From a bacterium (GTDB taxonomy: Bacteria > UBA8248), in contig CBDBZU010000004.1 in the NCBI GenBank assembly GCA_965213625.1, positions 2,784,001 through 2,848,000 of the forward strand: a stretch of DNA of 64,000 nt, given 5' to 3'. Each line of letters opens with the position of its first letter. The first letter of the stretch is position 1. The position numbers and the translations under genes are program-made. Below are positions 2-64,000 of this stretch, in pieces. Under the pieces are notes generated by a model, which saw nothing but the letters and a program-made list of their open reading frames with translations, made no database searches and was not told the DNA's origin.

Positions 2-700
2 CTCACGGATATCCTTGGTCTGGAAGATCATTTAGGGGATATGGATTTCAAGGTTGGTGGTACGCGCCATGGCATTACTGCCCTTCAAATGGATATCAAA
101 ATCAAAGGCCTGCAATTGAGTCTCGTGAAAGATGCATTGTCACAGGCCAACGATGCGAGAATGCATGTACTTGATCAGATGGATAAAGTGATTTCTCAGC
201 CAAGCGAAGAGATTTCCCCTTACGCGCCGAGGATTATGACGATTCAGGTCTCGAAAGATCGCGTGAGAGATGTGATTGGACCAGGCGGAAAAGTCATTCG
301 TGGAATTGTCGAGGAAACGGGGGCGGATGTCGATATTGAAGATGACGGAACCATCTTCATTTCCTCCACAGATGAGGCGGCTGCTCTCAGGGCGATTGAA
401 ATCATTCGTGAACTGACTCAGGAAGCCGAGAAAGGCACGATTTACCATGGGACAGTCAGAAAAATCATGGATTTTGGAGCATTCGTCGAAATTTTCCCGG
501 GAACGGATGGCCTTTGTCATATCAGCATGATTGCCAAGAAGAGAATTGGTTCAGTGAGTGATGTCTTGAAAGAAGGCCAGAAGGTTTTGGTGAAATGCAT
601 TGAAGTGGAAGGGAATGGGAGAATCCGTCTCTCCATGAAAGATGTGACAGAAGAAGAGTTGCCCGAAGAATGGAAGCAATTCTATGCACCCGTGACTTGA
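2..700 (+). CDS. pnp: Polyribonucleotide nucleotidyltransferase, C-terminal part (5' truncated by the window)
   Basis: Frame is open from position 2 (LTDILGLEDHLGDMDFKVGGT..ITALQMDIK); KH domain (VIGPGGKVIR) and S1 domain (FGAFVEIFPGTDGLCHIS). Confidence 0.97.
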   Translation, partial: LTDILGLEDHLGDMDFKVGGTRHGITALQMDIKIKGLQLSLVKDALSQANDARMHVLDQMDKVISQPSEEISPYAPRIMTIQVSKDRVRDVIGPGGKVIRGIVEETGADVDIEDDGTIFISSTDEAAALRAIEIIRELTQEAEKGTIYHGTVRKIMDFGAFVEIFPGTDGLCHISMIAKKRIGSVSDVLKEGQKVLVKCIEVEGNGRIRLSMKDVTEEELPEEWKQFYAPVT

Positions 701-723
701 TGCTCCCAGGTTTTGATGTGTGC

Positions 724-751
724 ACCGGTCTCCCAGGAGGCCGGTTTTTTT
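724..751 (+). terminator. Rho-independent terminator after pnp
   Basis: ACCGGTCTCC/GGAGGCCGGT stem (one G-U pair) followed by a run of 7 T. Confidence 0.85.
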
Positions 752-837
752 CATCTGCTCTTACAAGAAAGAGAAACAGGTCATTACTTGATTCGGTATC
801 TGTCTAGACAACTTTTCAAGGAAATTCAGAGGGTAAA

Positions 838-1926
838 ATGGACAAAAAAGCATTAGGTGTGGGTGTTGTAGGTTCTGGCAGAATAGGGACCTTGAGAGCA
901 AATCTTGTCTCGCATCATCCGTCTCTTGAATTTTTGGCGGTATCGGACATCGATCAGGAGCGGGCGAAGGAATTGGGGGGCAAGGTAGGCGCCCAACTCG
1001 CTACTGGTAAAAATGAAGAAGTAATTGAACACCCGGACGTCACGACCGTCATCGTATCCACGCCTGAGCATGATCACGCCGATTCCATCATCCATGCCCT
1101 GGAATTGGGCAAGCCTGTGTTGGTGGAAAAACCGATTTCCCTGACCTTGGAAGATGCAGACCGCATACTCTCGGTTGCCGAGAGGACAGGAACTGAACTC
1201 AGGGTAGGTTATGCCCAAAGGTTCAAACGTCGGTACCAGATGGCGAAAGAACAAATTATTCAAGGAAGGCTTGGAGAAATCCTCGCAGGCACGGGTCGAA
1301 CCTGTAACACCCGCGCACAGGGATTACAGATACTGAAGCGCTCCCCGCACGCAACGCCTGTGCTCGACGTGCTCACGTATTGGGTGGATATGGCCTGCTG
1401 GTTCATGGAAGGTCATCGCCCGGTGGAAGTAGTCGCTCGTGGAAACGGCAAAATATATAAAGAACACGGCTATTCGGCGAACGACGTCACCTGGTCTATC
1501 GTCACCTTTGACAATGGGGCTGTAATGAATTTGGGCGTTTTTTACGCCCTGCCCGCGAAATACCCGGCACTCGGCCAAAGCGTGAGGATGGAGATTTACG
1601 GTACGGACGGCGTCTTGATGCTTGATGAAGACCATAAGGATGAGATGCTGTACACCGATAAGGGAATTCCGCACACTTATATACCGGATCATCACATCAA
1701 CACGGCATTTTTAAGCAGTACGACACCTGGTGACTGGGCGGCGGGTGATTATTGGGGTCCTCTGGGTGATGAAACAAGGAGTTGGCTGGATCATGTCATC
1801 AACGGAAGGCCGACAACCCACGCCACTGCCGAGGATGCGCGCCAAACCCTGGAAGTGACGATAGCGATGGAATTGTCTTCTCAAACCGGAGAAGCCGTGC
1901 AATTGCCATTGGGTGAAGGGCATTAA
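838..1926 (+). CDS. Gfo/Idh/MocA family oxidoreductase
   Basis: N-terminal Rossmann motif GVVGSGRIG, then STPEHDH and the VLVEKP motif. Confidence 0.9.
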   Translation: MDKKALGVGVVGSGRIGTLRANLVSHHPSLEFLAVSDIDQERAKELGGKVGAQLATGKNEEVIEHPDVTTVIVSTPEHDHADSIIHALELGKPVLVEKPISLTLEDADRILSVAERTGTELRVGYAQRFKRRYQMAKEQIIQGRLGEILAGTGRTCNTRAQGLQILKRSPHATPVLDVLTYWVDMACWFMEGHRPVEVVARGNGKIYKEHGYSANDVTWSIVTFDNGAVMNLGVFYALPAKYPALGQSVRMEIYGTDGVLMLDEDHKDEMLYTDKGIPHTYIPDHHINTAFLSSTTPGDWAAGDYWGPLGDETRSWLDHVINGRPTTHATAEDARQTLEVTIAMELSSQTGEAVQLPLGEGH

Positions 1927-2053
1927 AGGCAGAACAATACAAACGGGGCGCACCCCTCGTCAGGATAATATGCCCCTAACTATTTGATTTGTTTCCTGTT
2001 TTGCATCCTCGCAAAATACACATTTAATCGTAATCGTGGTCCTGCTATTTCAT

Positions 2054-3055
2054 CTAGGCGTTTGCTTTGATCTCGGAATAATCCTTCGTGTAGTTGGGGG
2101 TCGGGGTTGCTCCTTGTCCTTGAATAATGTGAATTTTCCCTTCGGTGCGGTCGGCATTGCGGAATCCGCGCTGGACACCGGTGGGCACCCAGCAGGCATC
2201 CCATGGATCGAGAACGGCCTGATGGGTTTCCCCGCGCTCGTCAGCCCAATAGACGACCCATCTGCCCTCTAAAGCGATAAAAAGTTCCTCACACGGGTGG
2301 TCATGAAGCGGTGCGCCGCGGCCATTGCCGCATTCCACCATCGCGTATCCAATCTCTCCTTCGGATAGAGATGGCGGTGGGCCCTCTTCCGTATCCCCCG
2401 ATACGCCACCGATATAACGTCTCAGAGAACGTACTCCCTCCGGGAGTTTCGCTTCGTGATAAACGCTCCAGTTGCGAGGACATTCATCAAAACGGACGAA
2501 CTGGGTGGCCGGGTCATAGGCGGGTTTTTTGACGTATGCTTCGGTACGAGCGCCATCCGGCAAACCTTCTTGCAGCGAGTCTGGGTAGACGGGATATTGG
2601 TAGTCACCTTGGCCGTGTATGAAATGAATGAAACCATCTTCTTTCCCGACGTTTCTGAACCCGCGCATGATACCTGAGGGCACGCGGATAAGATCGTATT
2701 TGCCCAGAGTGACGCTTTTGGGAGCATTGGTTTCGAATTCCTCCCAAAATATCTCGAATTCACCTTCCCAGACCATGAAAATCTCTTCATCCGGGTGATC
2801 GTGAAGCGGTGCGCCGTTTTGGGGTGGAGCCATGGCGATTCCGCAGGTGAATTCCCAGCCGGGAAGGGGAGAGCGAAGATTTTGTCCCGAAATACCTCCA
2901 ATGTATCGGTAAATCGCCCGGTGATTCCCCTCCATATTTGATTCATGATATTCCCCCCAATCGGGTATCATTTCACCAAAGCGTATCACTGTAACCGGCG
3001 CAACGGTTGTTTTGGGTCGTGGAGCTTGCTGATTTGAATTATTGGAAGTATTCAT
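2054..3055 (-). CDS. Bicupin protein (two tandem cupin domains)
   Basis: Two homologous halves: GAPLHDHPDEEIF..VPSGIMRGFRN and GAPLHDHPCEELF..VPTGVQRGFRN. Confidence 0.85.
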   Translation of the reverse strand: MNTSNNSNQQAPRPKTTVAPVTVIRFGEMIPDWGEYHESNMEGNHRAIYRYIGGISGQNLRSPLPGWEFTCGIAMAPPQNGAPLHDHPDEEIFMVWEGEFEIFWEEFETNAPKSVTLGKYDLIRVPSGIMRGFRNVGKEDGFIHFIHGQGDYQYPVYPDSLQEGLPDGARTEAYVKKPAYDPATQFVRFDECPRNWSVYHEAKLPEGVRSLRRYIGGVSGDTEEGPPPSLSEGEIGYAMVECGNGRGAPLHDHPCEELFIALEGRWVVYWADERGETHQAVLDPWDACWVPTGVQRGFRNADRTEGKIHIIQGQGATPTPNYTKDYSEIKANA

Positions 3056-3214
3056 TTTTGGTCCCCCTCAATGGTGAGAATTACCACATCTCCAACCACG
3101 CATTTGCTGTAAGTGGTGATTCGGGCGAATATGTTATCACCATCGCAGGAGTATTTCTATCCTGGATTTTCGGGTGATTTGTGAAGAAAAGTTTTATAAA
3201 TCAGAGGGCATCGA

Positions 3215-4891
3215 ATGATTCTAAACATTAGAATATTTGCCATAATTTTCGTGGTTTTGGGGGTTCTCCCAACTTCCGCCATTGGACAATCTGCAGATAT
3301 CGCCCTGGTGAACGGGAAAGTGTTGACGGTCGACGCGAATTTCTCCACTCAACAGGCGGTGGCCATCCAGGGCGACCGAATTGTGTCTGTGGGGGGTGAT
3401 TCCCAGGTAAAGCAACTTATTGAATCCAATACGAAAGTGATTGATCTTCAAAGCAAAACGATGATCCCGGGTCTGATTGACAACCATGTTCATTTTATCC
3501 GTCATGCGTTGCGCTGGGAGCACGAAGCAAGAATCGATGGGGTAACTTCGCGTCAAAAAGCGCTAGACATCATATCCGCCAAGGCGAAGTCGCTGAAACG
3601 TGGTGAGTGGGTGCTCATCATCGGTGGCTGGAGCCCGGATCAATTTCGCGATAAGACGGGGTTGTTTACGAAAGCGGAGTTGGATAGAGCCGCCCCGAAC
3701 AATCCGGTATTCATCCAGCAGTCATACAGACTCATGATCCTGAACAGCTTGGCTCTCAAGAAGGCGGGCATCGATGAGAATTTTGATGCTCCGAGAGGCT
3801 GGCGGATAGCCAGAACGGCATCCGGCGTTCCCACGGGCGTTATTCGTGGTCGTCGGGCCATCTTCCGGTTCTGGCGTCGTGAACTGCCGAAAATTACAGA
3901 CGACAAAACCATATCAGGCCTGAAAAAACTGATGGCGGACTTTAACCGTACTGGCGTGACGAGCGTTTTCGAACTGGGCGGCGGCGGGGTTCGGGACACG
4001 ACTTACAAGATGATCAAGCAAAGACTGGCTGATAACGACGGCCTCACGCTGAGGATATTTCACACACCTCGCTTTCGGGCTCGAACACCTGAGAAAAACA
4101 AGAGAGTTATTCAGAGAATTCGAAACACGCGTCCTGAGAAATCTGCGAAGATGATGGGTAATATTGCGCTTGGCGAGCATATGTATGCACGAATTCACGA
4201 TTCTGCATTCAGGCCGTCTCGATACCCGGATGAGGATTATGCTGAATTTGCAAAGGTTTCCCGGGCGGCGGCGGATGGGGGATGGACGATTCACGAACAT
4301 GCTTTTCGCGATACCACGATTACGCGGTATCTGGATATTTTCGAGAAAATCAATCAGAAAAAGAACATAACGAATCTGCGCTGGTCGATTCATCACGCGG
4401 ATTTCATCTCGAAAAGAAATATCGAGCGCGTGAAAGCGCTCGGGATGACTCTGGCGCTGCACAGCAAGATGACGATTCTGGGCTCCGCACTGAGGCGAAG
4501 GTTGGGGGACCGCGCGCTCTCGCTGCCGCCACTTAGGACAGTTCAGAATAGCGGGGTCATATGGGGACTCGGCACGGACGCCGGCGTCGTGGCCCCTTAT
4601 CCGCCGATGCTTTCCCTGTGGTGGGCCGTGACGGGCATGGATTTGGGCGGGGAGAGGGCGCTTTCGGAGGCCGAAACCGTTTCCAGGAAAAACGCGCTCA
4701 TCGCCCACACGCGTTCGAACGCGTACCTGTTTTTCAAGGAAAATGAACTGGGCTCCATCGAAAAGGGCAAACTCGCGGACCTCGTCGTGCTTGACCGCGA
4801 TTACATGAATATACCTGCAGATCAAATCAAGGACATCAAGCCCTTGCTCACGATGGTCGGGGGAAGGTTGGTGTTCCGGTCGGAAATATGA
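3215..4891 (+). CDS. Exported amidohydrolase family 3 (YtcJ-like) protein
   Basis: Hydrophobic N-terminal signal, MIPGLIDNHVH, GTDA, and C-terminal GSIEKGKLADLVVLDRD. Confidence 0.88.
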   Translation: MILNIRIFAIIFVVLGVLPTSAIGQSADIALVNGKVLTVDANFSTQQAVAIQGDRIVSVGGDSQVKQLIESNTKVIDLQSKTMIPGLIDNHVHFIRHALRWEHEARIDGVTSRQKALDIISAKAKSLKRGEWVLIIGGWSPDQFRDKTGLFTKAELDRAAPNNPVFIQQSYRLMILNSLALKKAGIDENFDAPRGWRIARTASGVPTGVIRGRRAIFRFWRRELPKITDDKTISGLKKLMADFNRTGVTSVFELGGGGVRDTTYKMIKQRLADNDGLTLRIFHTPRFRARTPEKNKRVIQRIRNTRPEKSAKMMGNIALGEHMYARIHDSAFRPSRYPDEDYAEFAKVSRAAADGGWTIHEHAFRDTTITRYLDIFEKINQKKNITNLRWSIHHADFISKRNIERVKALGMTLALHSKMTILGSALRRRLGDRALSLPPLRTVQNSGVIWGLGTDAGVVAPYPPMLSLWWAVTGMDLGGERALSEAETVSRKNALIAHTRSNAYLFFKENELGSIEKGKLADLVVLDRDYMNIPADQIKDIKPLLTMVGGRLVFRSEI

Positions 4892-56637: not shown

Positions 56638-59319
56638 ATGTCTCCCCACAAAGGCGCCCTGCAAACAAAGAAAGAAAAAAAAACATCAAGCAATAGGCGC
56701 AGTGGTCCGTCTCCTGCAATGCGCCAATACCTGGAAATCAAAAGACGCTATCCGGACGCGATGCTGTTTTTTCAGTTGGGTGATTTTTTTGAAATGTTTT
56801 ATGAAGATGCGAAACTCGGGGCGAAAGTGCTGGAACTCGCATTAACATCGCGCCAGAGTGATGACAAAGGGCCCATACCTATGTGTGGTGTGCCTTGTCA
56901 TTCGGCTTCCTCTTATTGTGGACGATTGTTGGAAGCGGGTTTTAAAGTCGCTATTTGCGAGCAGGTGGAAGACACGGGAGAAAGCAAGGGTGTGGTAAGG
57001 CGTGAGGTGACTCGCGTTCTCACACCGGGCACCTCGATTGCCGACCTCAAATTACTTGATAGTAAGGAATCGCAATACTTGGCGGGTATCACCGTATCGG
57101 CGAGGGAAGGTGAGGCGCTTTGGGGAATGGCATGGCTGGATAGTTCGACCGGTGAGTTTTGTGCGACCCAGGCGGAAGGAGATGCCGCCGAGACGCTTAT
57201 TTGCAATCAATTGGAGAGACTCTCTCCTCGCGAACTCATTTTGCCGGATGTATTTTCCCCGCCCGATGAGTTGAAAAACAAAATTGATGAACTAAGCATT
57301 CATGTTGAAAAAAGGCCGGCCGCCACTTTTCATGAGCCACTTGATTTCAACGGCCTGGATACTATATTTCCAGATGAAGAAAATGTTCGGACGAACCCGT
57401 CTGCTGTTGATTCCGCCGTAGGCATTTTGGCGTATCTCAAAGAAAACCAGCCTGGCGATTTCCCCCATCTCAAGCCTGTGCTTTTTTCCCGACTCTCGGA
57501 CACTATGATTCTCGATGCCGCCACTTTGCGAAATTTAGAACTCACTCGCTCGGCGATGGATCGTGGGAAAAAAGGTACTTTATTTGGTTTGTTGGATGAG
57601 ACGCAGACAGGTATGGGAGGGCGATTGCTGAAAAAATGGGTCCTTTCACCATTGATTCAAAAACAAGCCATTGATTTTCGTGCCGAATCCGTAGAAGAAC
57701 TCGTGAATGATTCCGAAATTCTGAATCAGTTCAAAAACGCTATTGAGCCCATTCAAGATATCGAGCGGCTCCTGGGACGTGTGGGGTCTCAAACTGCGAA
57801 TGCCCGAGATATAGCTGGACTTGGCGGGTCTTTGGCTATGTTGCCGGAGGTCTATGAGGCGATCAAAGGGATGGCTTCGGAGTTGTTTCATTCGGTCGTA
57901 ACGGGGTGGGATTCTCTCGATGATGTAGCGTTGGAACTCAAAAACGCGATTGTGGATGAGCCGCCTGTTTCGATTCGAGAGGGTGGAATTTTTCGCACTG
58001 ATTATGATCAGGAACTTGCAAGGTTGAGAAAGGCGCAGCAGGAGGGTGATTTGTGGCTAAAGGATTATGAAAACAGAGAAAAAGAACGAACGGGACTGCC
58101 TGTGAAAATAGGGTTCAATCGCGTTTTTGGATATTATCTAGAGATATCCAAACGCTTCAGTGATCAGGCGCCAATGGAATATACGCGCAAGCAGACCCTC
58201 GTTTCTGCTGAGCGATACATTACTTCCGAGTTAAAAAAAATGGAAGAAGACATTCTCGGCGCAGAGGAGAGAGCCCATCATCTCGAGTTCATGCTTTTTG
58301 GACGCTTAAGAGCGCAATTATCAAAACAAGCCAAGCGCATTCTTGCCGCCGCTGAGAAAATAGCGATCATAGATGCTATTTTATCCTTGGCGCTTGTTGC
58401 GCGCAAATATGGATATGTCCGACCCCAAATTTTGGATTCTACAGAGCTTGAAATTGTCGAGGGGAGGCATCCCGTCATGGAAGCGGAGAATCCTGGCATA
58501 TCTTTCGTTCCGAACAATTTATCGATCCGTGACGATCACCGAATTCTCATCATTACAGGGCCGAATATGGCGGGAAAATCCACTTACCTGCGTCAATCAG
58601 CGCTGCTCATCCTGATGGCGCAAATTGGCAGTTTCGTACCAGCCAAGAGCGCGAAAATCGGTTTAGTCGATAGAGTGTTCACACGCGTTGGCGCGCATGA
58701 CCGACTGTTGGAGGGACAAAGCACTTTCATGGTTGAGATGGTGGAAACGGCCACCATATTAAGAGAGTCGACGCAAAAGAGTTTCATCGTGCTGGATGAG
58801 GTCGGGCGAGGCACGAGTACATATGATGGAGTGAGCATCGCTTGGTCGATTGTAGAGTATCTTCATAATGAGGTCCTTCACAGGGCGAGGACATTGTTCG
58901 CGACCCATTATCATGAGTTGGCCGAGCTCTCAAAAGAGCTCACCAGTGTGAAAAACTTGACGGTCGAAGTTCGAGAGTGGGGAGATGAAATAGTATTCTT
59001 GCGAAAAGTAAGCGATGGCAGTTGCGATAGAAGCTACGGTATTCAGGTTGGCAGGTTGGCTGGGCTTCCAGAGGAAGTGATCGACCGAGCCAAGACTTTG
59101 CTCTCAAAGTTTGAGAGTACGGAGACAATTTCCAGTTCCAGTGAGGAAAGAAATATTTGGGAAAATCGCCAGGGGAATGGGCAATTGCCTTTATTTTCAT
59201 GTAAGGAATCGCAGATTGAGCAAGTGTTGAAAGACCTTGAACCAGATTCCATGACACCTCGTCAGGCTCTCGATACCATTTATGAACTCCGGAAGATCAT
59301 GGCGGACGTTGAGCAGTAA
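56638..59319 (+). CDS. mutS: DNA mismatch repair protein MutS
   Basis: PAMRQYLEIK, GDFFEMF, PMCGVP, TGPNMAGKSTYLRQ, STFMVEM, DEVGRGTST, FATHYHEL, SYGIQV. Confidence 0.97.
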   Translation: MSPHKGALQTKKEKKTSSNRRSGPSPAMRQYLEIKRRYPDAMLFFQLGDFFEMFYEDAKLGAKVLELALTSRQSDDKGPIPMCGVPCHSASSYCGRLLEAGFKVAICEQVEDTGESKGVVRREVTRVLTPGTSIADLKLLDSKESQYLAGITVSAREGEALWGMAWLDSSTGEFCATQAEGDAAETLICNQLERLSPRELILPDVFSPPDELKNKIDELSIHVEKRPAATFHEPLDFNGLDTIFPDEENVRTNPSAVDSAVGILAYLKENQPGDFPHLKPVLFSRLSDTMILDAATLRNLELTRSAMDRGKKGTLFGLLDETQTGMGGRLLKKWVLSPLIQKQAIDFRAESVEELVNDSEILNQFKNAIEPIQDIERLLGRVGSQTANARDIAGLGGSLAMLPEVYEAIKGMASELFHSVVTGWDSLDDVALELKNAIVDEPPVSIREGGIFRTDYDQELARLRKAQQEGDLWLKDYENREKERTGLPVKIGFNRVFGYYLEISKRFSDQAPMEYTRKQTLVSAERYITSELKKMEEDILGAEERAHHLEFMLFGRLRAQLSKQAKRILAAAEKIAIIDAILSLALVARKYGYVRPQILDSTELEIVEGRHPVMEAENPGISFVPNNLSIRDDHRILIITGPNMAGKSTYLRQSALLILMAQIGSFVPAKSAKIGLVDRVFTRVGAHDRLLEGQSTFMVEMVETATILRESTQKSFIVLDEVGRGTSTYDGVSIAWSIVEYLHNEVLHRARTLFATHYHELAELSKELTSVKNLTVEVREWGDEIVFLRKVSDGSCDRSYGIQVGRLAGLPEEVIDRAKTLLSKFESTETISSSSEERNIWENRQGNGQLPLFSCKESQIEQVLKDLEPDSMTPRQALDTIYELRKIMADVEQ

Positions 59320-59449
59320 AAAAAGTGGAACCAGGTTATGGCGCACCATCTGGAAGTTCTTCATGAGCATGAAGATAGAGAAGCCAAACAAGGCATTGAG
59401 AGCTTTATTCATATGCGATAGCATTGAATTCCAAGGCCAAGGGGAACAT

Positions 59450-60055
59450 ATGTTGTCTAACACCCGGAAAACATTTGTTCTTAGGAAATGCGCCATAGCC
59501 ATCTGTATGGTTTTCGTTTTGGTGGGGCCGGCGCTTTCTGCAACAGATAATCAAGATGGAATCCGACTAAAAGATATTATTGTCATCAAGAAAAATGGGC
59601 AGTTGCTTGTTTTTGGTTCTCTCTTGGGTGCATTTTCTCCAAAATTGTTAGAAGCCATTCATAGCGGTGTGACTACGAAGTTCATCTTTGATGTAAGTCT
59701 CTTTCGCACTCGCAAGCTGATTTATGACTTGGAAGTCACCTCACGGCAATTACATCATCAAGTGAAATATAGTGCTTTAAAAAAAACATACACTTTTTAC
59801 CTCAAAGAAGGTGCGAAAGAGATCGAGAGAAAAGTGACGAGAAGCCAAGGTGAAATGACCGACTGGATGCGTGAATTGAATGGCACGCCCATCGGCTCCG
59901 GTAAGACATTGTCCCCCAAAAGTCGATATTATGTAAAAATAAGAGCGCGGTTGAATCAAGTAGATTTTGTTTTTCCCTTTAATTACTTGCTTGCTTTTTG
60001 GGGGAAGAAATCTGATTGGAACTATTCGCCGACATTTAGTTCTGAGGGAATGTGA
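59450..60055 (+). CDS. Exported DUF4390-like protein
   Basis: Signal peptide (LVGPALSA), EAIHSGV...F.F.V.L; sits directly upstream of the ntrY-like kinase, the usual context for this family. Confidence 0.72.
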   Translation: MLSNTRKTFVLRKCAIAICMVFVLVGPALSATDNQDGIRLKDIIVIKKNGQLLVFGSLLGAFSPKLLEAIHSGVTTKFIFDVSLFRTRKLIYDLEVTSRQLHHQVKYSALKKTYTFYLKEGAKEIERKVTRSQGEMTDWMRELNGTPIGSGKTLSPKSRYYVKIRARLNQVDFVFPFNYLLAFWGKKSDWNYSPTFSSEGM

Positions 60056-60058
60056 ATT

Positions 60059-62323
60059 GTGTATCCAAAGCGACTGAAAAATCTGGAAATCACTTCACGT
60101 CGACGGAGAACACTTCTGCGATCATTCATCGCATTGATCATAATTGCGACTCTTTCATTCACGGCTTGGATTTATTTCAAAGAACTTGAGCCGGGAGTCC
60201 CCTTACTGAACAACGTCGTCGTATTTGCACTAGTGAATCTGAGTATCATTCTGCTCATGGTGGTTATTCTCTTGGTAGCGAAAAACTTGGTACGTCTTTA
60301 CTACGAAGGGAGAACGGGCGCTGGTCGATCGCGTTTGCAATTAAAGCTTGTCTTGGCATTTGTCGGATTTACGCTCATTCCTGTAGTGGCTCTTTTTGTG
60401 GTAGCCAGCGGTTTGATTAATCAAAGTTTTAACGCCCTGTTCAACATGAATGTGGAGAGTGCGCTTAAGGGGTCGTTCGAGGTGGCCCAAACCTATTATC
60501 GCGAGGTGGAGCGAAACACACTATTCAGTGCGAGTCGACTAGCGCTTGCATTGGAGAAGGCGCATCCCGATACATTACAAAACTCCAAGGCAATTGAAGG
60601 AATTTTAGAGTCGGAGAGAAAGAGCTTCGGAGCAGATATTATCCAACTCTATGATCGAAAGAGAAACGAGATCGTATCGGTCAGGCGACCTGGGTTAGAA
60701 CGAGACGTAAAGTTTTCGCCATTGGTTGGATACGTGGATCAGGTGATCGATGGGGAATCGCGCTCAAGTATAGAAAATTGGGAAAAAGGCGATGTCATCT
60801 ACGGCGTAGCGCCTTTGAAAATACAGAAAAAAGTGGTGGGGTTTATCGTCGCATCCAAATATGTGCCTGACAGGCTCGTGGAAAAGATTAGGAACATATC
60901 GGATTCTTTTGTAAATTATAAAGAATTGGAACTTTCCAAGAACCCAATCAAAGCTAACTACATTATCACCTTCTTAGTGGTTACTTTGCTTATTCTCTTT
61001 GCCGCCATATGGTTTGGCTTCTACCTCGCTCGCGGAATCACTGTTCCCATCGAAAAATTAGCGGACGCTACAAGGGCGGTGTCTGACGGCGATCTCGAAC
61101 ATCGCGTAGATGCGCAAACAGATGGTGAAGTGGGGATTTTGGTCAACGCCTTTAACAGCATGACGGAAGAATTGCTGGCTAACAAAGAAAAAATCGAAGA
61201 GTCCTCTGAAATTTTACGCCGTTCCAACTTGGAAATCGACAGAAGACGTAGATATATGGAAGCGATGCTCGAAAATATTGGAGCGGGTGTGATATCAATC
61301 AATCGCAGAGGGCGCGTTACAATTCTCAACAAAGCGGCAGGGGAATTATTGAGCATTGAACCTCAGGATGCCGTGGGACGAATGTTCAGCGAGGTTTTCG
61401 AAAGCGCGCATCTCGAGCCTGTTCGTCAGTTGATGCGTTCCATGAGAGATCGAGAACACCAAAGCGCTTCAAAACAAGTGGAGGTCATGATTGATGGCCA
61501 TGTAATTACGCTACGCGCAAGCTTAACCCTGCTCAAAAGCGCTGATGGCGGCAGGCTAGGGGCTGTTATTGTATTTGATGATATGACGGCCTTGATTCGG
61601 GCTCAAAAAGTGGCCGCATGGCAAGAGGTGGCTCGCGGCATCGCGCATGAGATCAAAAATCCACTTACTCCGATTCAACTCTCTGCTCAGAGAATGAGGC
61701 GGAAATTTGAGAGTGAGTCTTACGACTTTGCTGAAGTATTCGAATCTTGCACGGATACCATTATCAATCAGGTGACAAGTTTGATTGAAATGGTGAATGA
61801 ATTCAGCCGGTTTGCGAGAATGCCAGAGCCGAGATTGAGGCTTTGTGAATTTGTGCCCCTTATTGAAGAAGTTGCAAATTTATATCGTGGCAGAAAGGGG
61901 AATGTGAAATTTTCTATCCATATCAACACCGAGAATGCAGCTGTCATGGCAGATCCCGAGCAGTTGCAGCGCGTGTTCATCAATTTGTTGGAAAACGCTT
62001 TTGAATCGCACGAAATCGGAGGTGAGATAGATTTGCAATCATGGAGTGATATGGACAGAAATCTGATAGTTGTTGAAGTTGCCGACCAAGGGCAGGGCAT
62101 ATCGGAAGATATGAAAGACCATATTTTCTCACCGTACTTTTCTACTAAAGATCGGGGTTCTGGTTTAGGTTTGGCTATATGCAACCGTATTGTAGCAGAT
62201 CATAATGGGACCATTAACGTGCGGGATAATCACCCAGCGGGTTCCGTTTTTCGCGTAACGTTGCCGCTGGCGCCTGCAGTAGACATTACGCCTGAAAAGC
62301 AAAGGACAGCTTCCATTGGATAA
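60059..62323 (+). CDS. ntrY: NtrY-like membrane sensor histidine kinase (HAMP, PAS, HisKA, HATPase)
   Basis: N-terminal TM helices, HAMP (GEVGILVNAFNSMT), AWQEVARGIAHEIKNPLTPIQLSAQR, NLLENA, DQGQG, GSGLGLAI. Confidence 0.9.
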   Translation: MYPKRLKNLEITSRRRRTLLRSFIALIIIATLSFTAWIYFKELEPGVPLLNNVVVFALVNLSIILLMVVILLVAKNLVRLYYEGRTGAGRSRLQLKLVLAFVGFTLIPVVALFVVASGLINQSFNALFNMNVESALKGSFEVAQTYYREVERNTLFSASRLALALEKAHPDTLQNSKAIEGILESERKSFGADIIQLYDRKRNEIVSVRRPGLERDVKFSPLVGYVDQVIDGESRSSIENWEKGDVIYGVAPLKIQKKVVGFIVASKYVPDRLVEKIRNISDSFVNYKELELSKNPIKANYIITFLVVTLLILFAAIWFGFYLARGITVPIEKLADATRAVSDGDLEHRVDAQTDGEVGILVNAFNSMTEELLANKEKIEESSEILRRSNLEIDRRRRYMEAMLENIGAGVISINRRGRVTILNKAAGELLSIEPQDAVGRMFSEVFESAHLEPVRQLMRSMRDREHQSASKQVEVMIDGHVITLRASLTLLKSADGGRLGAVIVFDDMTALIRAQKVAAWQEVARGIAHEIKNPLTPIQLSAQRMRRKFESESYDFAEVFESCTDTIINQVTSLIEMVNEFSRFARMPEPRLRLCEFVPLIEEVANLYRGRKGNVKFSIHINTENAAVMADPEQLQRVFINLLENAFESHEIGGEIDLQSWSDMDRNLIVVEVADQGQGISEDMKDHIFSPYFSTKDRGSGLGLAICNRIVADHNGTINVRDNHPAGSVFRVTLPLAPAVDITPEKQRTASIG

Positions 62324-64000
62324 GGGACATGTGCTCATCGTGGATGATGAGCGTGAAATACTCACGAGCTTGGAAGATGTGTTAAACGATGAAGGATATC
62401 GTGTCGAACGTGCCGAGTCTGGAGAAACGGCCCTGCAATTGGTTCGTACTGAAACTCCGGATGTAGTTTTGGTTGATGTGTGGATGCCTGGCATTGATGG
62501 AATCAAGACATTGCAAGCAGTGAAAGAGTCGAACGCGGATATTGAAGTCGTCGTGATGTCGGGCCACGGCAACATAGAAACCGCTGTTGCCGCTACAAAG
62601 TTGGGCGCTTTTAATTTTATTGAAAAACCCCTGTCTATTGATGCGGTTTTGCGTATAGTCGATTCCGCTGTTCAAGCGCGAAGAGCCAAGGAGCTAAAGG
62701 CGAGTGATGTTGTCGATGTAATGCTTGATGGTAATAGCAAGAATATTCAAAAAGTTCGGCGGGCCATACGTAAAGCTGCGAAAGAATACAGCCCTTTGCT
62801 AATCGCAGGTGAAAGAGGTACTGGGAAGCGTTTTGTTGCCAGGGTAATTCATAAAAACGGCATGAAAAAAGAAGAAGGCTTTAGGCCCGTTCATTGCCGT
62901 TCGCTGTTTCCTATGACGGAGATTAGCGAATGGGAAAATACCTTGGAACGGTTGTTGCCAGATGCCTATCAAGGGACGGTATATCTTGATGGTTTGGAGC
63001 AGCTACCCATGGCGGAGCGGGAGTTATTTCTTGCGAGATTTCTTGGTCATACGAAAGAATCAATGCGTTTGATGGTATCCGTTGATTATATGGGTGCCCT
63101 GAATGACAAGGCCGATGTAAAAGCTTTATCCTCAAAAATAGGCGTTGATGTAATTCACCTGCCCCCTTTGCGCGAACGTAAAGAGGATATTTTGCCGTTG
63201 GCCAATAAATTTTTGAATGAATGTAATGAAGCTGGAAGGGATAAGAAAGAATTTTCAGAGGATGTCATTGCGCTTCTAGAAGATTATGATTGGCCAGGCA
63301 ATATTGCTGAATTGAAAGGCGCGGTGACCAAAGCGTCATATTCATCCCAAGGCTCGGAAATTGATGTCAGCCACTTGCCGTACGCAATACGCGAAGCTTC
63401 TGATTTAGCGGCGCACACATCTTCAAAAAATGACGCTCCTTCTAATTTTAATGTGGCCAGAACCCAGTGGGAGAGACAATACCTTTCCTTCCATTTGGAG
63501 GAGCACGGTTGGGATATCCACAAAACCGCCCAAGCGGTGGGAATGACGAAACAAGCTTTAAAACGAAAAATTAAAGCATACAATATCGAGCCCGTAACGT
63601 CGGCGTCGACGATGATTAGGGAAACAAATCAAAGGAGTATCTCGAAAAGTGTCGTGTTGTACGGCCGAGGGCTTCATTCAGGGTTGAAGACCGGATTAAT
63701 CATCGAACCCTTGCCGCCGGGGAGCGGAATTCAATTCGGCAACCTGACAAGTCCCGATACCGTGAGAGCAAATGTTGATTTTGTGGATGGCACCAACCAT
63801 GCAACTAACTTGCGCAATGGAACTGTAACGGCTCGGACAATAGAGCATCTCATGAGCGCGCTACACGCTTATAAGATAAGCAATATACTCATCAAGATGA
63901 GTGAAGAAGTGCCTGTTATGGATGGGTCGGCAGTAGAGTTTTGTCGCTTGCTCGAAGAAGCGGGCATTGAAGATCAGAAACAAAAATGTGATGACTTGTG
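62316..64000 (+). CDS. lpxC: NtrX-like response regulator fused to UDP-3-O-acyl-GlcNAc deacetylase LpxC (3' truncated by the window)
   Basis: Manual translation from TTG 62316 shows no stop: VLIVDDE, DVWMPGIDG, MSGHGNIETAV, FIEKP; GERGTGK, LPPLRERKEDI, WPGN; Fis-like HTH; then QRSISKSVVLYGRGLHSG, TIEHLMSAL and EVPVMDGSA. Confidence 0.9.
   Translation, partial: MDKGHVLIVDDEREILTSLEDVLNDEGYRVERAESGETALQLVRTETPDVVLVDVWMPGIDGIKTLQAVKESNADIEVVVMSGHGNIETAVAATKLGAFNFIEKPLSIDAVLRIVDSAVQARRAKELKASDVVDVMLDGNSKNIQKVRRAIRKAAKEYSPLLIAGERGTGKRFVARVIHKNGMKKEEGFRPVHCRSLFPMTEISEWENTLERLLPDAYQGTVYLDGLEQLPMAERELFLARFLGHTKESMRLMVSVDYMGALNDKADVKALSSKIGVDVIHLPPLRERKEDILPLANKFLNECNEAGRDKKEFSEDVIALLEDYDWPGNIAELKGAVTKASYSSQGSEIDVSHLPYAIREASDLAAHTSSKNDAPSNFNVARTQWERQYLSFHLEEHGWDIHKTAQAVGMTKQALKRKIKAYNIEPVTSASTMIRETNQRSISKSVVLYGRGLHSGLKTGLIIEPLPPGSGIQFGNLTSPDTVRANVDFVDGTNHATNLRNGTVTARTIEHLMSALHAYKISNILIKMSEEVPVMDGSAVEFCRLLEEAGIEDQKQKCDDL

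Follow-up and report, generated by a model that had tools for sequence, protein, structure and literature searches.

A single open reading frame in which an NtrX-like response regulator and a complete LpxC are joined behind an NtrY-like sensor kinase

LpxC is the enzyme that commits the cell to lipid A synthesis, and in E. coli it is a stand-alone protein controlled by FtsH/LapB proteolysis. At the end of the 64,000-nucleotide stretch of DNA analysed here (the window; G000:C4:2784001-2848000), a preliminary description made from the letters had read one uninterrupted frame in which a response regulator runs directly into the N-terminal half of LpxC, immediately behind the gene of an NtrY-type kinase. 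Two questions are raised by this locus: whether a single polypeptide really unites a two-component regulator with this enzyme and, if so, whether the regulator controls the enzyme to which it is joined. The first can be answered plainly, since the gene encodes one genuine polypeptide in which an NtrX-like response regulator is fused to a complete LpxC, the only LpxC of the cell.

The fused gene, its neighbours and its spread

The open reading frame listing contains a frame at 62316..63998 on the forward strand (TTG start, 561 aa, 3' end open), which bears out the single frame first described, with the residues quoted from it and its start on the ntrY stop; the overlap is of 8 bases. The window therefore holds (62316..64000, +) the first 561 of 711 codons. 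When the contig is extended, the HKxxD motif and the stop are both found, the latter 451 bases past the window end (G000:C4:2848451), and the full frame is L001:187-2322. Translation of the fusion is coupled at its start to the end of ntrY. This start may instead lie at GTG 62331, part of the database entries in the 90% cluster being annotated with 706 aa, and both candidates precede strand 1 of the receiver. A stop or indel hidden between the helix-turn-helix and LpxC was looked for in the full frame and in the contigs of individual sequencing runs, and none was found: contigs from three runs, possibly of the same source as the window, are identical and gap-free over 62800-64000, and strain contigs from a second study carry substitutions and no indels. 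A second lpxC was likewise sought, and the 4.15-Mb genome (96.6% complete) yields one LpxC match, the fusion gene itself.

Two genes precede the fusion on the same strand, forming with it a conserved cluster in the order DUF4390 - ntrY - fusion. The first (59282..60055, +) encodes a DUF4390 protein (Pfam, 93.2 bits) whose true start probably lies later than 59282, because its relatives are ~200-210 aa long; it also precedes ntrY in the related loci L093, L095, L096, L098 and L014. The second (60059..62323, +) encodes a membrane sensor histidine kinase of 754 aa, whose Pfam domains (NtrY_N 31.5 bits, HAMP 52.9, PAS 56.3, HisKA 41.6 and HATPase_c 83.5) confirm that an NtrY-like kinase lies immediately upstream. 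Short forms of the fusion, consisting of receiver and LpxC, likewise stand behind DUF4390-NtrY. Some fusions are found without an adjacent NtrY: L104 and L029 lie behind greA and a methyltransferase, and L115 and L116 have a radical SAM gene upstream instead.

Fusions were sought in relatives and are present across phyla. In the window's phylum (51 genomes), all 45 complete LpxC matches lie in fused-size frames (432-755 aa, or in a single case a frame truncated where its contig stops) and none is stand-alone; the same holds for 57/57 complete matches in a second phylum (61 genomes), so that the two phyla together show no LpxC-only form among 102 complete matches. A third phylum has 17 of its 78 LpxC places in fused-size frames, 15 of them confirmed by Pfam. 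A receiver-pattern search of the genome contigs returned mostly ordinary NtrC-family regulators, and only its relevant loci (L013, L014, L017, L029, L056, L076, L088 and L091) were considered. When a cultured, named carrier was sought among the cluster members, the names returned were all MAGs. The preliminary description knew of no characterised example, and in the literature that we searched no description of a receiver-LpxC fusion was found either. One frame, in genome G025 (L107), comprises AAA+, lid and LpxC without a receiver; its contig ends 68 bases on, and its first 70 residues are apparently out of frame.

Domains of the fused polypeptide

Along the polypeptide, Pfam matches all four of the expected domains, in the order receiver, Sigma54-type AAA+ with its lid, Fis-type helix-turn-helix (HTH) and complete LpxC. 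The receiver (aa 6-114; 62331..62657, +) scores 105.9 bits with Response_reg (PF00072; cut-off 30.2) and contains the acidic pocket D10 and D11, the phospho-acceptor D54, S82, F101 and K104. Among 96 family members, D10, D11 and K104 are kept in 96/96, and D54 and S82 in 95/96.

The NtrX-like AAA+ core and lid follow at aa 139-366 (62730..63413, +), matched by Sigma54_activ_2 (aa 139-285, 49.8 bits) and AAA_lid_14 (aa 286-366). The "AAA+-like domain" first described stands as far as its Walker A motif, GERGTGK, is concerned, which is intact and whose G165, G168, G170 and K171 are kept in 85/85 long forms, but the hallmarks of a sigma-54 activator are missing. The Walker B motif reads LDGLEQ, with D-G and no glutamate (a glutamate occurs in 3 of the 85 long forms), and a GAFTGA-like motif, sought in the same 85 sequences including the fusion's own AAA+, was found in none of them; for these two reasons the domain is not regarded as a sigma-54 activator module. 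The Sigma54_activat model (PF00158) is also matched only in part (positions 3-61 of 168), so that the complete PF00158, GAFTGA and Walker B Asp-Glu of sigma-54 enhancer-binding proteins are all lacking. Judged from these motifs, the domain probably binds nucleotide without having the residue for hydrolysis. The Fis-type HTH (aa 384-422; 63465..63581, +) is matched by HTH_8 with 23.8 bits (cut-off 22), and the AF2 model places three helices at aa 378-421. A short variable linker (aa 423-438; 63582..63629, +), with pLDDT below 50 at aa 427-434, leads from there into the enzyme.

The LpxC domain occupies aa 439-561 in the window (63630..64000, +) and aa 439-711 in the genome. Within the window, the Pfam LpxC match covers aa 439-557 (model positions 1-119 of 268) and is cut by the window end; at the genome level, PF03331 is matched over positions 1-267 of 268 with 282.8 bits, and TIGR00325 scores 241.3 bits, above its cut-off of 187.25. 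The full frame holds FVRHKILDVIGD and SGHRHN, and the LpxC is thus complete. It aligns end to end with solved LpxC chains (residues 4-277), with TIEH, ARTFGF, HKILD and SGH kept, and residues E510, H511, H669, K670, D673, D677 and H696, which we take to be those with zinc-binding and catalytic roles, are invariant in 96 sequences. By these residues the LpxC part is catalytically competent, and UDP-3-O-acyl-GlcNAc deacetylase activity is expected of it, because no other LpxC match exists in the 96.6%-complete genome.

Does the receiver control the enzyme?

The rates at which the domains evolve, and the order in which they are lost, bear on the second question. Across nine species of the genus, dN/dS is 0.038 for the receiver and 0.048 for LpxC, compared with 0.19 (AAA+), 0.17 (lid) and 0.11 (HTH), so that the two ends change at roughly a quarter of the rate of the middle; mean pairwise identity in the 85 long forms is 0.64 for the receiver, 0.60 for LpxC and 0.32-0.38 for the middle domains. 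The middle domains have been deleted repeatedly, leaving receiver-LpxC with the NtrY kinase still upstream: the tree requires six long/short changes, at least three of which are forced by starred branches. One short form, from the genus to which the window belongs, retains a remnant of the HTH end, and one further form is REC-HTH-LpxC, the long, intermediate and short forms making up a natural series of ready-made deletion variants. A receiver that is as constrained as LpxC, and is kept when AAA+ and HTH are lost, favours kinase control of LpxC, a support that is evolutionary in kind. Nevertheless, the AAA+/HTH middle of this genus is under purifying selection (dN/dS 0.11-0.19) and shows no decay, and a role in transcription could by itself account for the constraint on the receiver there.

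On balance, we consider it fairly probable that this real fusion is a switch in which D54, once phosphorylated by NtrY, acts at the protein level to set what LpxC delivers, and that the long form also binds DNA. That the only LpxC is fused to a response regulator, beside its likely sensor kinase, suggests a direct signalling switch on outer-membrane synthesis. In such a mechanism, the membrane kinase would phosphorylate D54, and the phosphorylation state of the receiver would in turn set how much LpxC delivers, most likely either through a change in dimerisation via the receiver alpha4-beta5-alpha5 face or through occlusion of the enzyme being relieved or imposed, as in CheB-type regulators. 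The phospho-switch would fill the place of E. coli FtsH/LapB proteolysis. In the long form, the HTH and AAA+ part, which remains under purifying selection, probably still binds DNA as NtrX does, and the protein would be regulator and enzyme at once. Counting against the switch are the fusions that have no NtrY beside them, the NtrX-model score below its cut-off (given below) and the AF2 models. The models show well-folded domains with low-confidence linkers (pTM 0.63 for the short form, with ~48 disordered residues, and 0.51 at full length) and predict no fixed receiver-LpxC arrangement; complex prediction of the receiver (aa 1-128) with LpxC (aa 434-711), using alignment A2, gave scores of 0.25 and 0.16, below the mark of 0.32, a result that weighs on neither side.

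A fusion that is real but passive in function is unlikely. The stop between adjacent ntrX and lpxC genes would have been lost once, together with the LpxC start, leaving two halves that work independently on a flexible tether, with the receiver kept merely for its translation start and for other NtrY signalling. This is consistent with linkers that are variable and of low confidence (dN/dS of linker 2 is 0.76) and with a junction falling exactly at the natural N-terminus of LpxC, as simple stop loss would yield. However, each of the separate reductions, of which the tree implies three at the least and six at the most, spared the receiver, and not one LpxC-only form occurs among the 102; the short forms, which have no DNA-binding output, still carry NtrY upstream and retain the phospho-site in 105-107 of 107 short-set sequences; and a start codon alone needs no 120 conserved residues.

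We regard as improbable a signal running in the reverse direction, in which the occupancy of LpxC (by substrate or product, reflecting lipid A flux) would inform the NtrX-like part, making the protein mainly a flux-sensing transcription factor. The short HTH-LpxC linker (~8-14 residues) and the purifying selection on the HTH in the genus would suit it, as would the control of envelope genes by NtrX in Alphaproteobacteria, as given in the available part of PMC7240162. Against it, HTH and AAA+ are lost repeatedly while receiver-LpxC stays, and even among long forms HTH_8 is undetected at E<=0.001 in L056, L076, L104, L029, L017 and L103, the HTH region being entirely missing in P0097.

It is very improbable, in our judgement, that the working enzyme is a free LpxC, released by linker proteolysis or, in this species, initiated internally at the in-frame ATG 63612-63614 (M433). 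The preliminary description had pointed to this ATG as a possible separate start, and it is real, lying where stand-alone LpxC begins, six codons ahead of the first conserved LpxC residue. Yet none of GGAG, GAGG and AGGA, as Shine-Dalgarno-like motifs, occurs in the 25 bases upstream, and the position is AAC in the nearest relative and ATC in a near strain. Among 46 distinct junctions, 41 have no ATG in the 12 codons preceding LpxC, and 26 have no ATG, GTG or TTG there (the junction pattern missed 8 of 55 loci, L099, L108, L121, L123, L124, L127, L056 and L091, which are outside these counts). By this comparison the ATG is peculiar to this species and no conserved internal start exists; with 41/46 junctions lacking it, an internal start as a general rule is rejected. 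The full-length fusion is of ~78 kDa, and a free LpxC would be of ~31 kDa. Finally, a sequencing or assembly error between ntrX and lpxC, whether by loss of a stop or by a frameshift, in favour of which no point was found, has practically no chance and is rejected as far as comparative data can refute it, because the fused open frame recurs across whole phyla in dozens of independently assembled genomes (38-92% identity) and the run contigs show no indels.

Comparison with known systems

The best solved-structure match to the N-terminal 436 aa is NtrX of Brucella abortus (5M7N/5M7O/5M7P), fusion residues 5-422 aligning with NtrX 5-452 at E 2.4e-51 (5m7n). Both have the order receiver, AAA+ without GAFTGA and Fis-type HTH, in a gene that follows an NtrY kinase, and the upstream kinase has the NtrY_N, HAMP, PAS and HisKA layout of the NtrY system, here with DUF4390 before it; whereas NtrX stops after the HTH, the fusion continues in frame into a whole LpxC. 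The NtrX equivalog NF051870 is the best NCBIfam model for this part, but its score of 266.7 bits is below the cut-off of 600 (another regulator of the same genome reaches 390), and we therefore call it NtrX-like and do not file it as NtrX. In five short-form genomes, where the same search was meant to show whether a separate NtrX persists, it found several NtrC-family regulators each and none above the cut-off, which says little either way.

A link between NtrYX and lpxC is already known. In R. sphaeroides, loss of NtrYX raises lpxC mRNA 8.8-fold (available part of PMC7240162), and transcription of lpxC is inhibited by NtrYX both in that species and in C. crescentus (available part of PMC12444477). 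This known link acts on transcription, reportedly in an indirect way in R. sphaeroides, whereas that of the fusion is covalent. In the accessible portion of a 2025 review, NtrYX effects are listed solely as transcriptional and the words "fusion" and "fused" are absent. As all complete LpxC examined in two phylum-level groups are fused, receiver-linked control would be the normal mode there. We propose, tentatively and without leaning towards it, that a switch on LpxC replaces FtsH/LapB-type proteolysis in whole phyla and that the fusion is a "Rosetta stone" for an ancestral role of NtrYX in outer-membrane lipid homeostasis; if true, such homeostasis as the core job of NtrYX would explain the link seen in Alphaproteobacteria. 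The fusion also supports, on independent genomic grounds, the NtrYX-envelope connection known genetically from that group, and it offers a concrete hypothesis for the purified protein, namely that a sensor kinase acts on LpxC by way of a receiver covalently joined to it.

A dedicated regulator of lpxC has a parallel in Desulfovibrio vulgaris, in a lineage near carriers of receiver-LpxC fusions, where the available part of PMC3333781 gives lpxC as the single mapped target of the two-component response regulator DVU2934. Unlike the fusion, DVU2934 is described as a separate DNA-binding protein at the lpxC promoter, and the two are likened by description, not by sequence. In contrast to the stand-alone E. 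coli LpxC, the fused enzyme ends (...VKKLMEDHA) 6 residues beyond the LpxC domain, the C-terminal degron tail of the E. coli protein presumably being longer. A LapB zinc-ribbon match was sought in the 96.6%-complete genome and none was found, with a 28-position model that is unspecific, since 10 of 14 controls, Gram-positives among them, match it too.

Response regulators whose output is an enzymatic activity are familiar from CheB, PleD/WspR and RpfG. In these, a receiver is flexibly linked to an enzyme, and the short receiver-LpxC forms share exactly that two-domain layout, a likeness in their possible mode of action, with homology limited to the receiver; their outputs are signalling enzymes, whereas the fusion carries a zinc deacetylase that serves lipid A biosynthesis. 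The bifunctional LpxC/FabZ (NF009667) is likewise a natural fusion, in which LpxC is joined to a partner drawn from its own area of physiology. The present protein scores 212.3 bits with that model (cut-off 465), through its LpxC part only and with no C-terminal FabZ: FabZ follows LpxC and is, like it, an enzyme of the pathway, whereas the partner in the present protein precedes LpxC and is a signalling protein.

The fusion gene and its single reading frame

The fusion gene is real, complete and strongly conserved. The preliminary description had claimed a frame starting at TTG 62316, and the ORF list contains it (+ strand, from this TTG to the window's end, 561 aa, 3'-open), with the claimed overlap with the ntrY stop amounting to 8 bases between the TTG and the upstream 754-aa gene (60059..62323). 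Beyond the window, 451 more bases lead to a stop, giving a protein of 711 aa whose LpxC remainder carries FVRHKILDVIGD and SGHRHN, and a search for a second lpxC found exactly one LpxC match in the whole genome (G000; 4.15 Mb, 96.6% complete). The start could alternatively be GTG 62331, as 706 aa is the called length of some proteins in the 90% cluster. In Pfam terms, this + strand frame is formed by a receiver domain (aa 6-114, 105.9 bits), a Sigma54_activ_2 AAA+ core (aa 139-285), an AAA_lid_14 lid (aa 286-366), an HTH_8 domain (aa 384-422, at 23.8 bits barely above the cut-off of 22) and LpxC (aa 439-557, with positions 1-119 of 268 inside the window).

The gene directly upstream (60059..62323, +) encodes a kinase with NtrY_N, HAMP, PAS, HisKA and HATPase_c matches, and is itself preceded by mutS (56638-59319, +, 893 aa) and then by the gene of a DUF4390 protein (59282-60055, +, Pfam), while purM and purN lie downstream of the fusion. 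The DUF4390 ORF as listed (257 aa) begins 38 bases before the end of mutS, and its counterparts in relatives are shorter by about 50 aa, so the true start probably lies further downstream.

Read support was assessed with Logan contigs of three runs, which agree with the window over 62800-64000 with no difference and no gap (depths 60-230). All three runs come from a single study, and the window itself may derive from them. A second study supplied contigs of a related strain, and these differ from the window by substitutions only, with no indels. Far stronger evidence against an artefact than the run contigs is the cross-genome comparison described in the next section.

An in-frame ATG at 63612 occupies the position at which a stand-alone LpxC would begin, and the alignment of the fusion's LpxC domain with solved LpxC chains starts at residue 4 of the latter. 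Separate translation from this codon, raised in the preliminary description as a possible refutation, fares badly in the comparison with relatives: the same site reads AAC in the nearest relative and ATC in a near strain, which makes the ATG peculiar to the window's species. None of GGAG, GAGG and AGGA occurs within the 25 bases 5' of it. Among 47 loci matched by a junction pattern (46 distinct; the pattern missed 8 more loci), ATG is absent from the 12 codons leading to the first conserved LpxC residue in 41 of the 46 junctions, and 26 of the 46 lack GTG and TTG there as well. As a rule, the fusion genes cannot give a separately made LpxC.

Distribution and gene neighbourhood in three phyla

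That relatives share the fusion is evident in the GTDB phylum of the window (51 species genomes, G000 included), where none of the 45 complete LpxC matches is stand-alone. A match is present in 50 of the 51 genomes, the search of G031 (93% complete) having returned none. Open frames of 646-755 aa hold 35 of the complete matches and frames of 432-538 aa hold 9, the last one being in a 356-aa frame cut by a contig end, with the HTH region still visible (8 further LpxC rows are fragments, outside the 45). In the second phylum (that of G036, 61 genomes sampled), all 57 complete matches lie in frames of 460-797 aa, 52 of them of at least 675 aa and 5 of 460-514 aa. In the third phylum (that of G118), 77 of the 81 genomes sampled have a match; the LpxC frame is of stand-alone size (281-393 aa) at 61 places and larger (417-1007 aa) at 17, and Pfam found receiver and LpxC in all 15 of the larger ones that were scanned. 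Here the Pfam LpxC scores of the fused proteins are all at or below 291 bits, whereas most stand-alone ones score 295-376 bits, so the fused LpxCs look like a distinct subfamily.

The family runs to thousands of members, with 5592 and 7998 hits in two database searches. Source names on the database matches include Nitrospinae/Nitrospinota, Candidatus Tectomicrobia, Candidatus Schekmanbacteria, Acidobacteriota, Thermodesulfobacteriota/Desulfobacterota, Syntrophobacterales and Candidatus Binatia, and family members are annotated only as "UDP-3-O-acyl-GlcNAc deacetylase" or "NtrX".

Genome G153 has both a stand-alone-sized LpxC (C33:20147-20956, 330-aa frame, 369 bits) and a receiver-LpxC (L127, C11:39479-40309, 438 aa, 249 bits), which could be two differently controlled LpxCs or bin contamination. 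At L123 (G195:C1, ORF 462-3263, -), with a 1007-aa open frame (ORF 934 aa), the receiver comes only at aa 509-618 and is followed by LpxC at 654-921. No Pfam match covers the first ~500 residues, which may reflect over-extension of the frame in GC-rich DNA. At L107 (G025:C67), AAA+, lid and LpxC are visible and the receiver is not; the first ~70 residues seem to be in the wrong frame, the contig end is only 68 bases away, and the missing receiver may be a frameshift or assembly problem.

The order mutS - DUF4390 - ntrY - fusion - purM - purN is common to long forms (receiver, AAA+/HTH middle and LpxC) and short forms (receiver-LpxC) of the window's phylum. In the other two phyla, an NtrY-type kinase lies 5' of the fusion at L113, L121, L128, L129, L130 and L091. 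Two long fusions of the second phylum (L104, in G036:C5, and L029) have greA and a Methyltransf_4 gene upstream and no ntrY, and two short receiver-LpxC loci (L115 and L116, in G130 and G172) have a radical SAM gene upstream and no kinase.

Constraint on the ends and loss of the middle

The LpxC domain passes the TIGR00325 equivalog cut-off (241.3 versus 187.25 bits), and E510, H511, H669, K670, D673, D677 and H696 show no variation among 96 sequences. We are highly confident that the fused protein is the working LpxC, a narrower claim than that of its control by the receiver. At the other end, the receiver residues D10, D11 and K104 are found in 96/96 sequences, and D54 (the phospho-acceptor) and S82 in 95/96; all five sites are kept in 105-107 of 107 short forms. 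The N-terminal 436 aa have NtrX 5m7n as the closest solved structure (E 2.4e-51) and NF051870 (NtrX) as the best NCBIfam model, with 266.7 bits, far under the 600-bit cut-off; judged on these matches, the fused protein appears NtrX-like, and we do not file it as NtrX. An NtrC-family regulator encoded outside the window (G000:C4:536400-537746, -) scores 390 bits on this model, above the 267 of the fusion, both being under 600.

Constraint was mapped on an alignment (A2) of the window protein and 95 of the 120 listed matches, 25 near-duplicates or fragments being excluded. In its 85 long forms, mean pairwise identity is 0.64 for the receiver and 0.60 for LpxC, 0.32 for the AAA+ core, 0.38 for the lid, 0.36 for the HTH region and 0.11-0.20 for the linkers. 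Median dN/dS among nine species of the window's genus (27-36 usable pairs per segment) is 0.038 for the receiver, 0.048 for LpxC, 0.19 for the AAA+ core, 0.17 for the lid, 0.11 for the HTH region and 0.76 for the HTH-LpxC linker; the values of 0.11-0.19 indicate that the middle is still selected in this genus, four to five times more loosely. Walker A residues G165, G168, G170 and K171 occur in all 85 long forms. The Walker B glutamate position holds G in 55 of the 85 and E in 3 (the window protein reads LDGLEQ), and a GAFTGA-like loop is present in none of the 85. The AAA+ core is no sigma-54 activator module, and it is unlikely to be an active ATPase. In the window's long form the HTH probably remains functional, so the long form may also regulate transcription, as NtrX does.

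Pfam shows only receiver and LpxC in G009 (from the window's genus), G049, G050, G055, G023 and G057, and the same holds for many genomes in the second and third phyla. A protein of the window's genus (P0053, 458 aa) keeps a remnant of the last HTH helix, and a 505-aa protein in G078 (L128, C28, ORF 486-2000, -) is REC-HTH_8-LpxC, with neither AAA+ core nor lid, behind an NtrY-like kinase; these intermediates point to an origin of the short forms by deletion. A maximum-likelihood tree of the LpxC columns (quick search; 64 rows, with 31 long, 31 short and 2 very distant outgroups) needs 6 changes between long and short, at least 3 being forced by starred branches. In it, the window's own clade (20 rows, support 100) has 8 long forms and 12 short ones in four separate places. 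The direction from long to short is suggested by the remnants and the shared homology of all middles, not by the tree root. When the LpxC domain is compared with proteins of 151-483 aa, nearly all of its 120 closest relatives are receiver-LpxC (407-476 aa), the few receiver-less rows being mostly fragments from short contigs. The data show that receiver and enzyme have stayed joined and conserved together behind a sensor kinase, while all that lay between them was lost repeatedly.

A proposed phosphorylation control of LpxC

Searches of the openly accessible literature turned up no account of a fusion of receiver and LpxC, or of NtrX and LpxC. In R. sphaeroides, lpxC mRNA rises 8.8-fold when ntrYX is lost, with no NtrX site found upstream of lpxC (PMC7240162). 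A 2025 review of lipid A regulation discusses NtrYX solely in a transcriptional role, and neither "fusion" nor "fused" occurs in it (PMC12444477). The D. vulgaris regulator DVU2934 is reported to have lpxC as its single target (PMC3333781), which is repeated in PMC4114195 and bioRxiv 10.1101/2021.11.05.467447.

The simplest reading of the fusion, and one that we consider reasonably probable, is that NtrY would phosphorylate D54 of the receiver and that the state of the receiver would then act on LpxC itself; the phosphotransfer is an inference here, and so are the sign and physical route of the effect. The main rival, in our judgement unlikely, is a passive tether. Such a tether fits the floppy linkers that AlphaFold2 predicts, both in the full-length protein (four well-folded modules, mean pLDDT 81.7, pTM 0.51, with low-confidence linkers at aa 129-134, 363-376 and 427-434) and in a 458-aa short form (two confident domains, a disordered linker of ~48 residues, pLDDT 83.8, pTM 0.63), but it leaves unexplained why no reduction ever lost the receiver, and why the phospho-site is intact where no DNA-binding output remains.

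The fusion belongs to a known kind of signalling protein but has a type of output that is new, and its family carries a clear, testable hypothesis. If direct control through the receiver is true, LpxC would be under two-component control where E. coli has FtsH/LapB proteolysis, and the fusion would stand beside CheB and PleD, which are likewise response regulators working through an enzymatic output.
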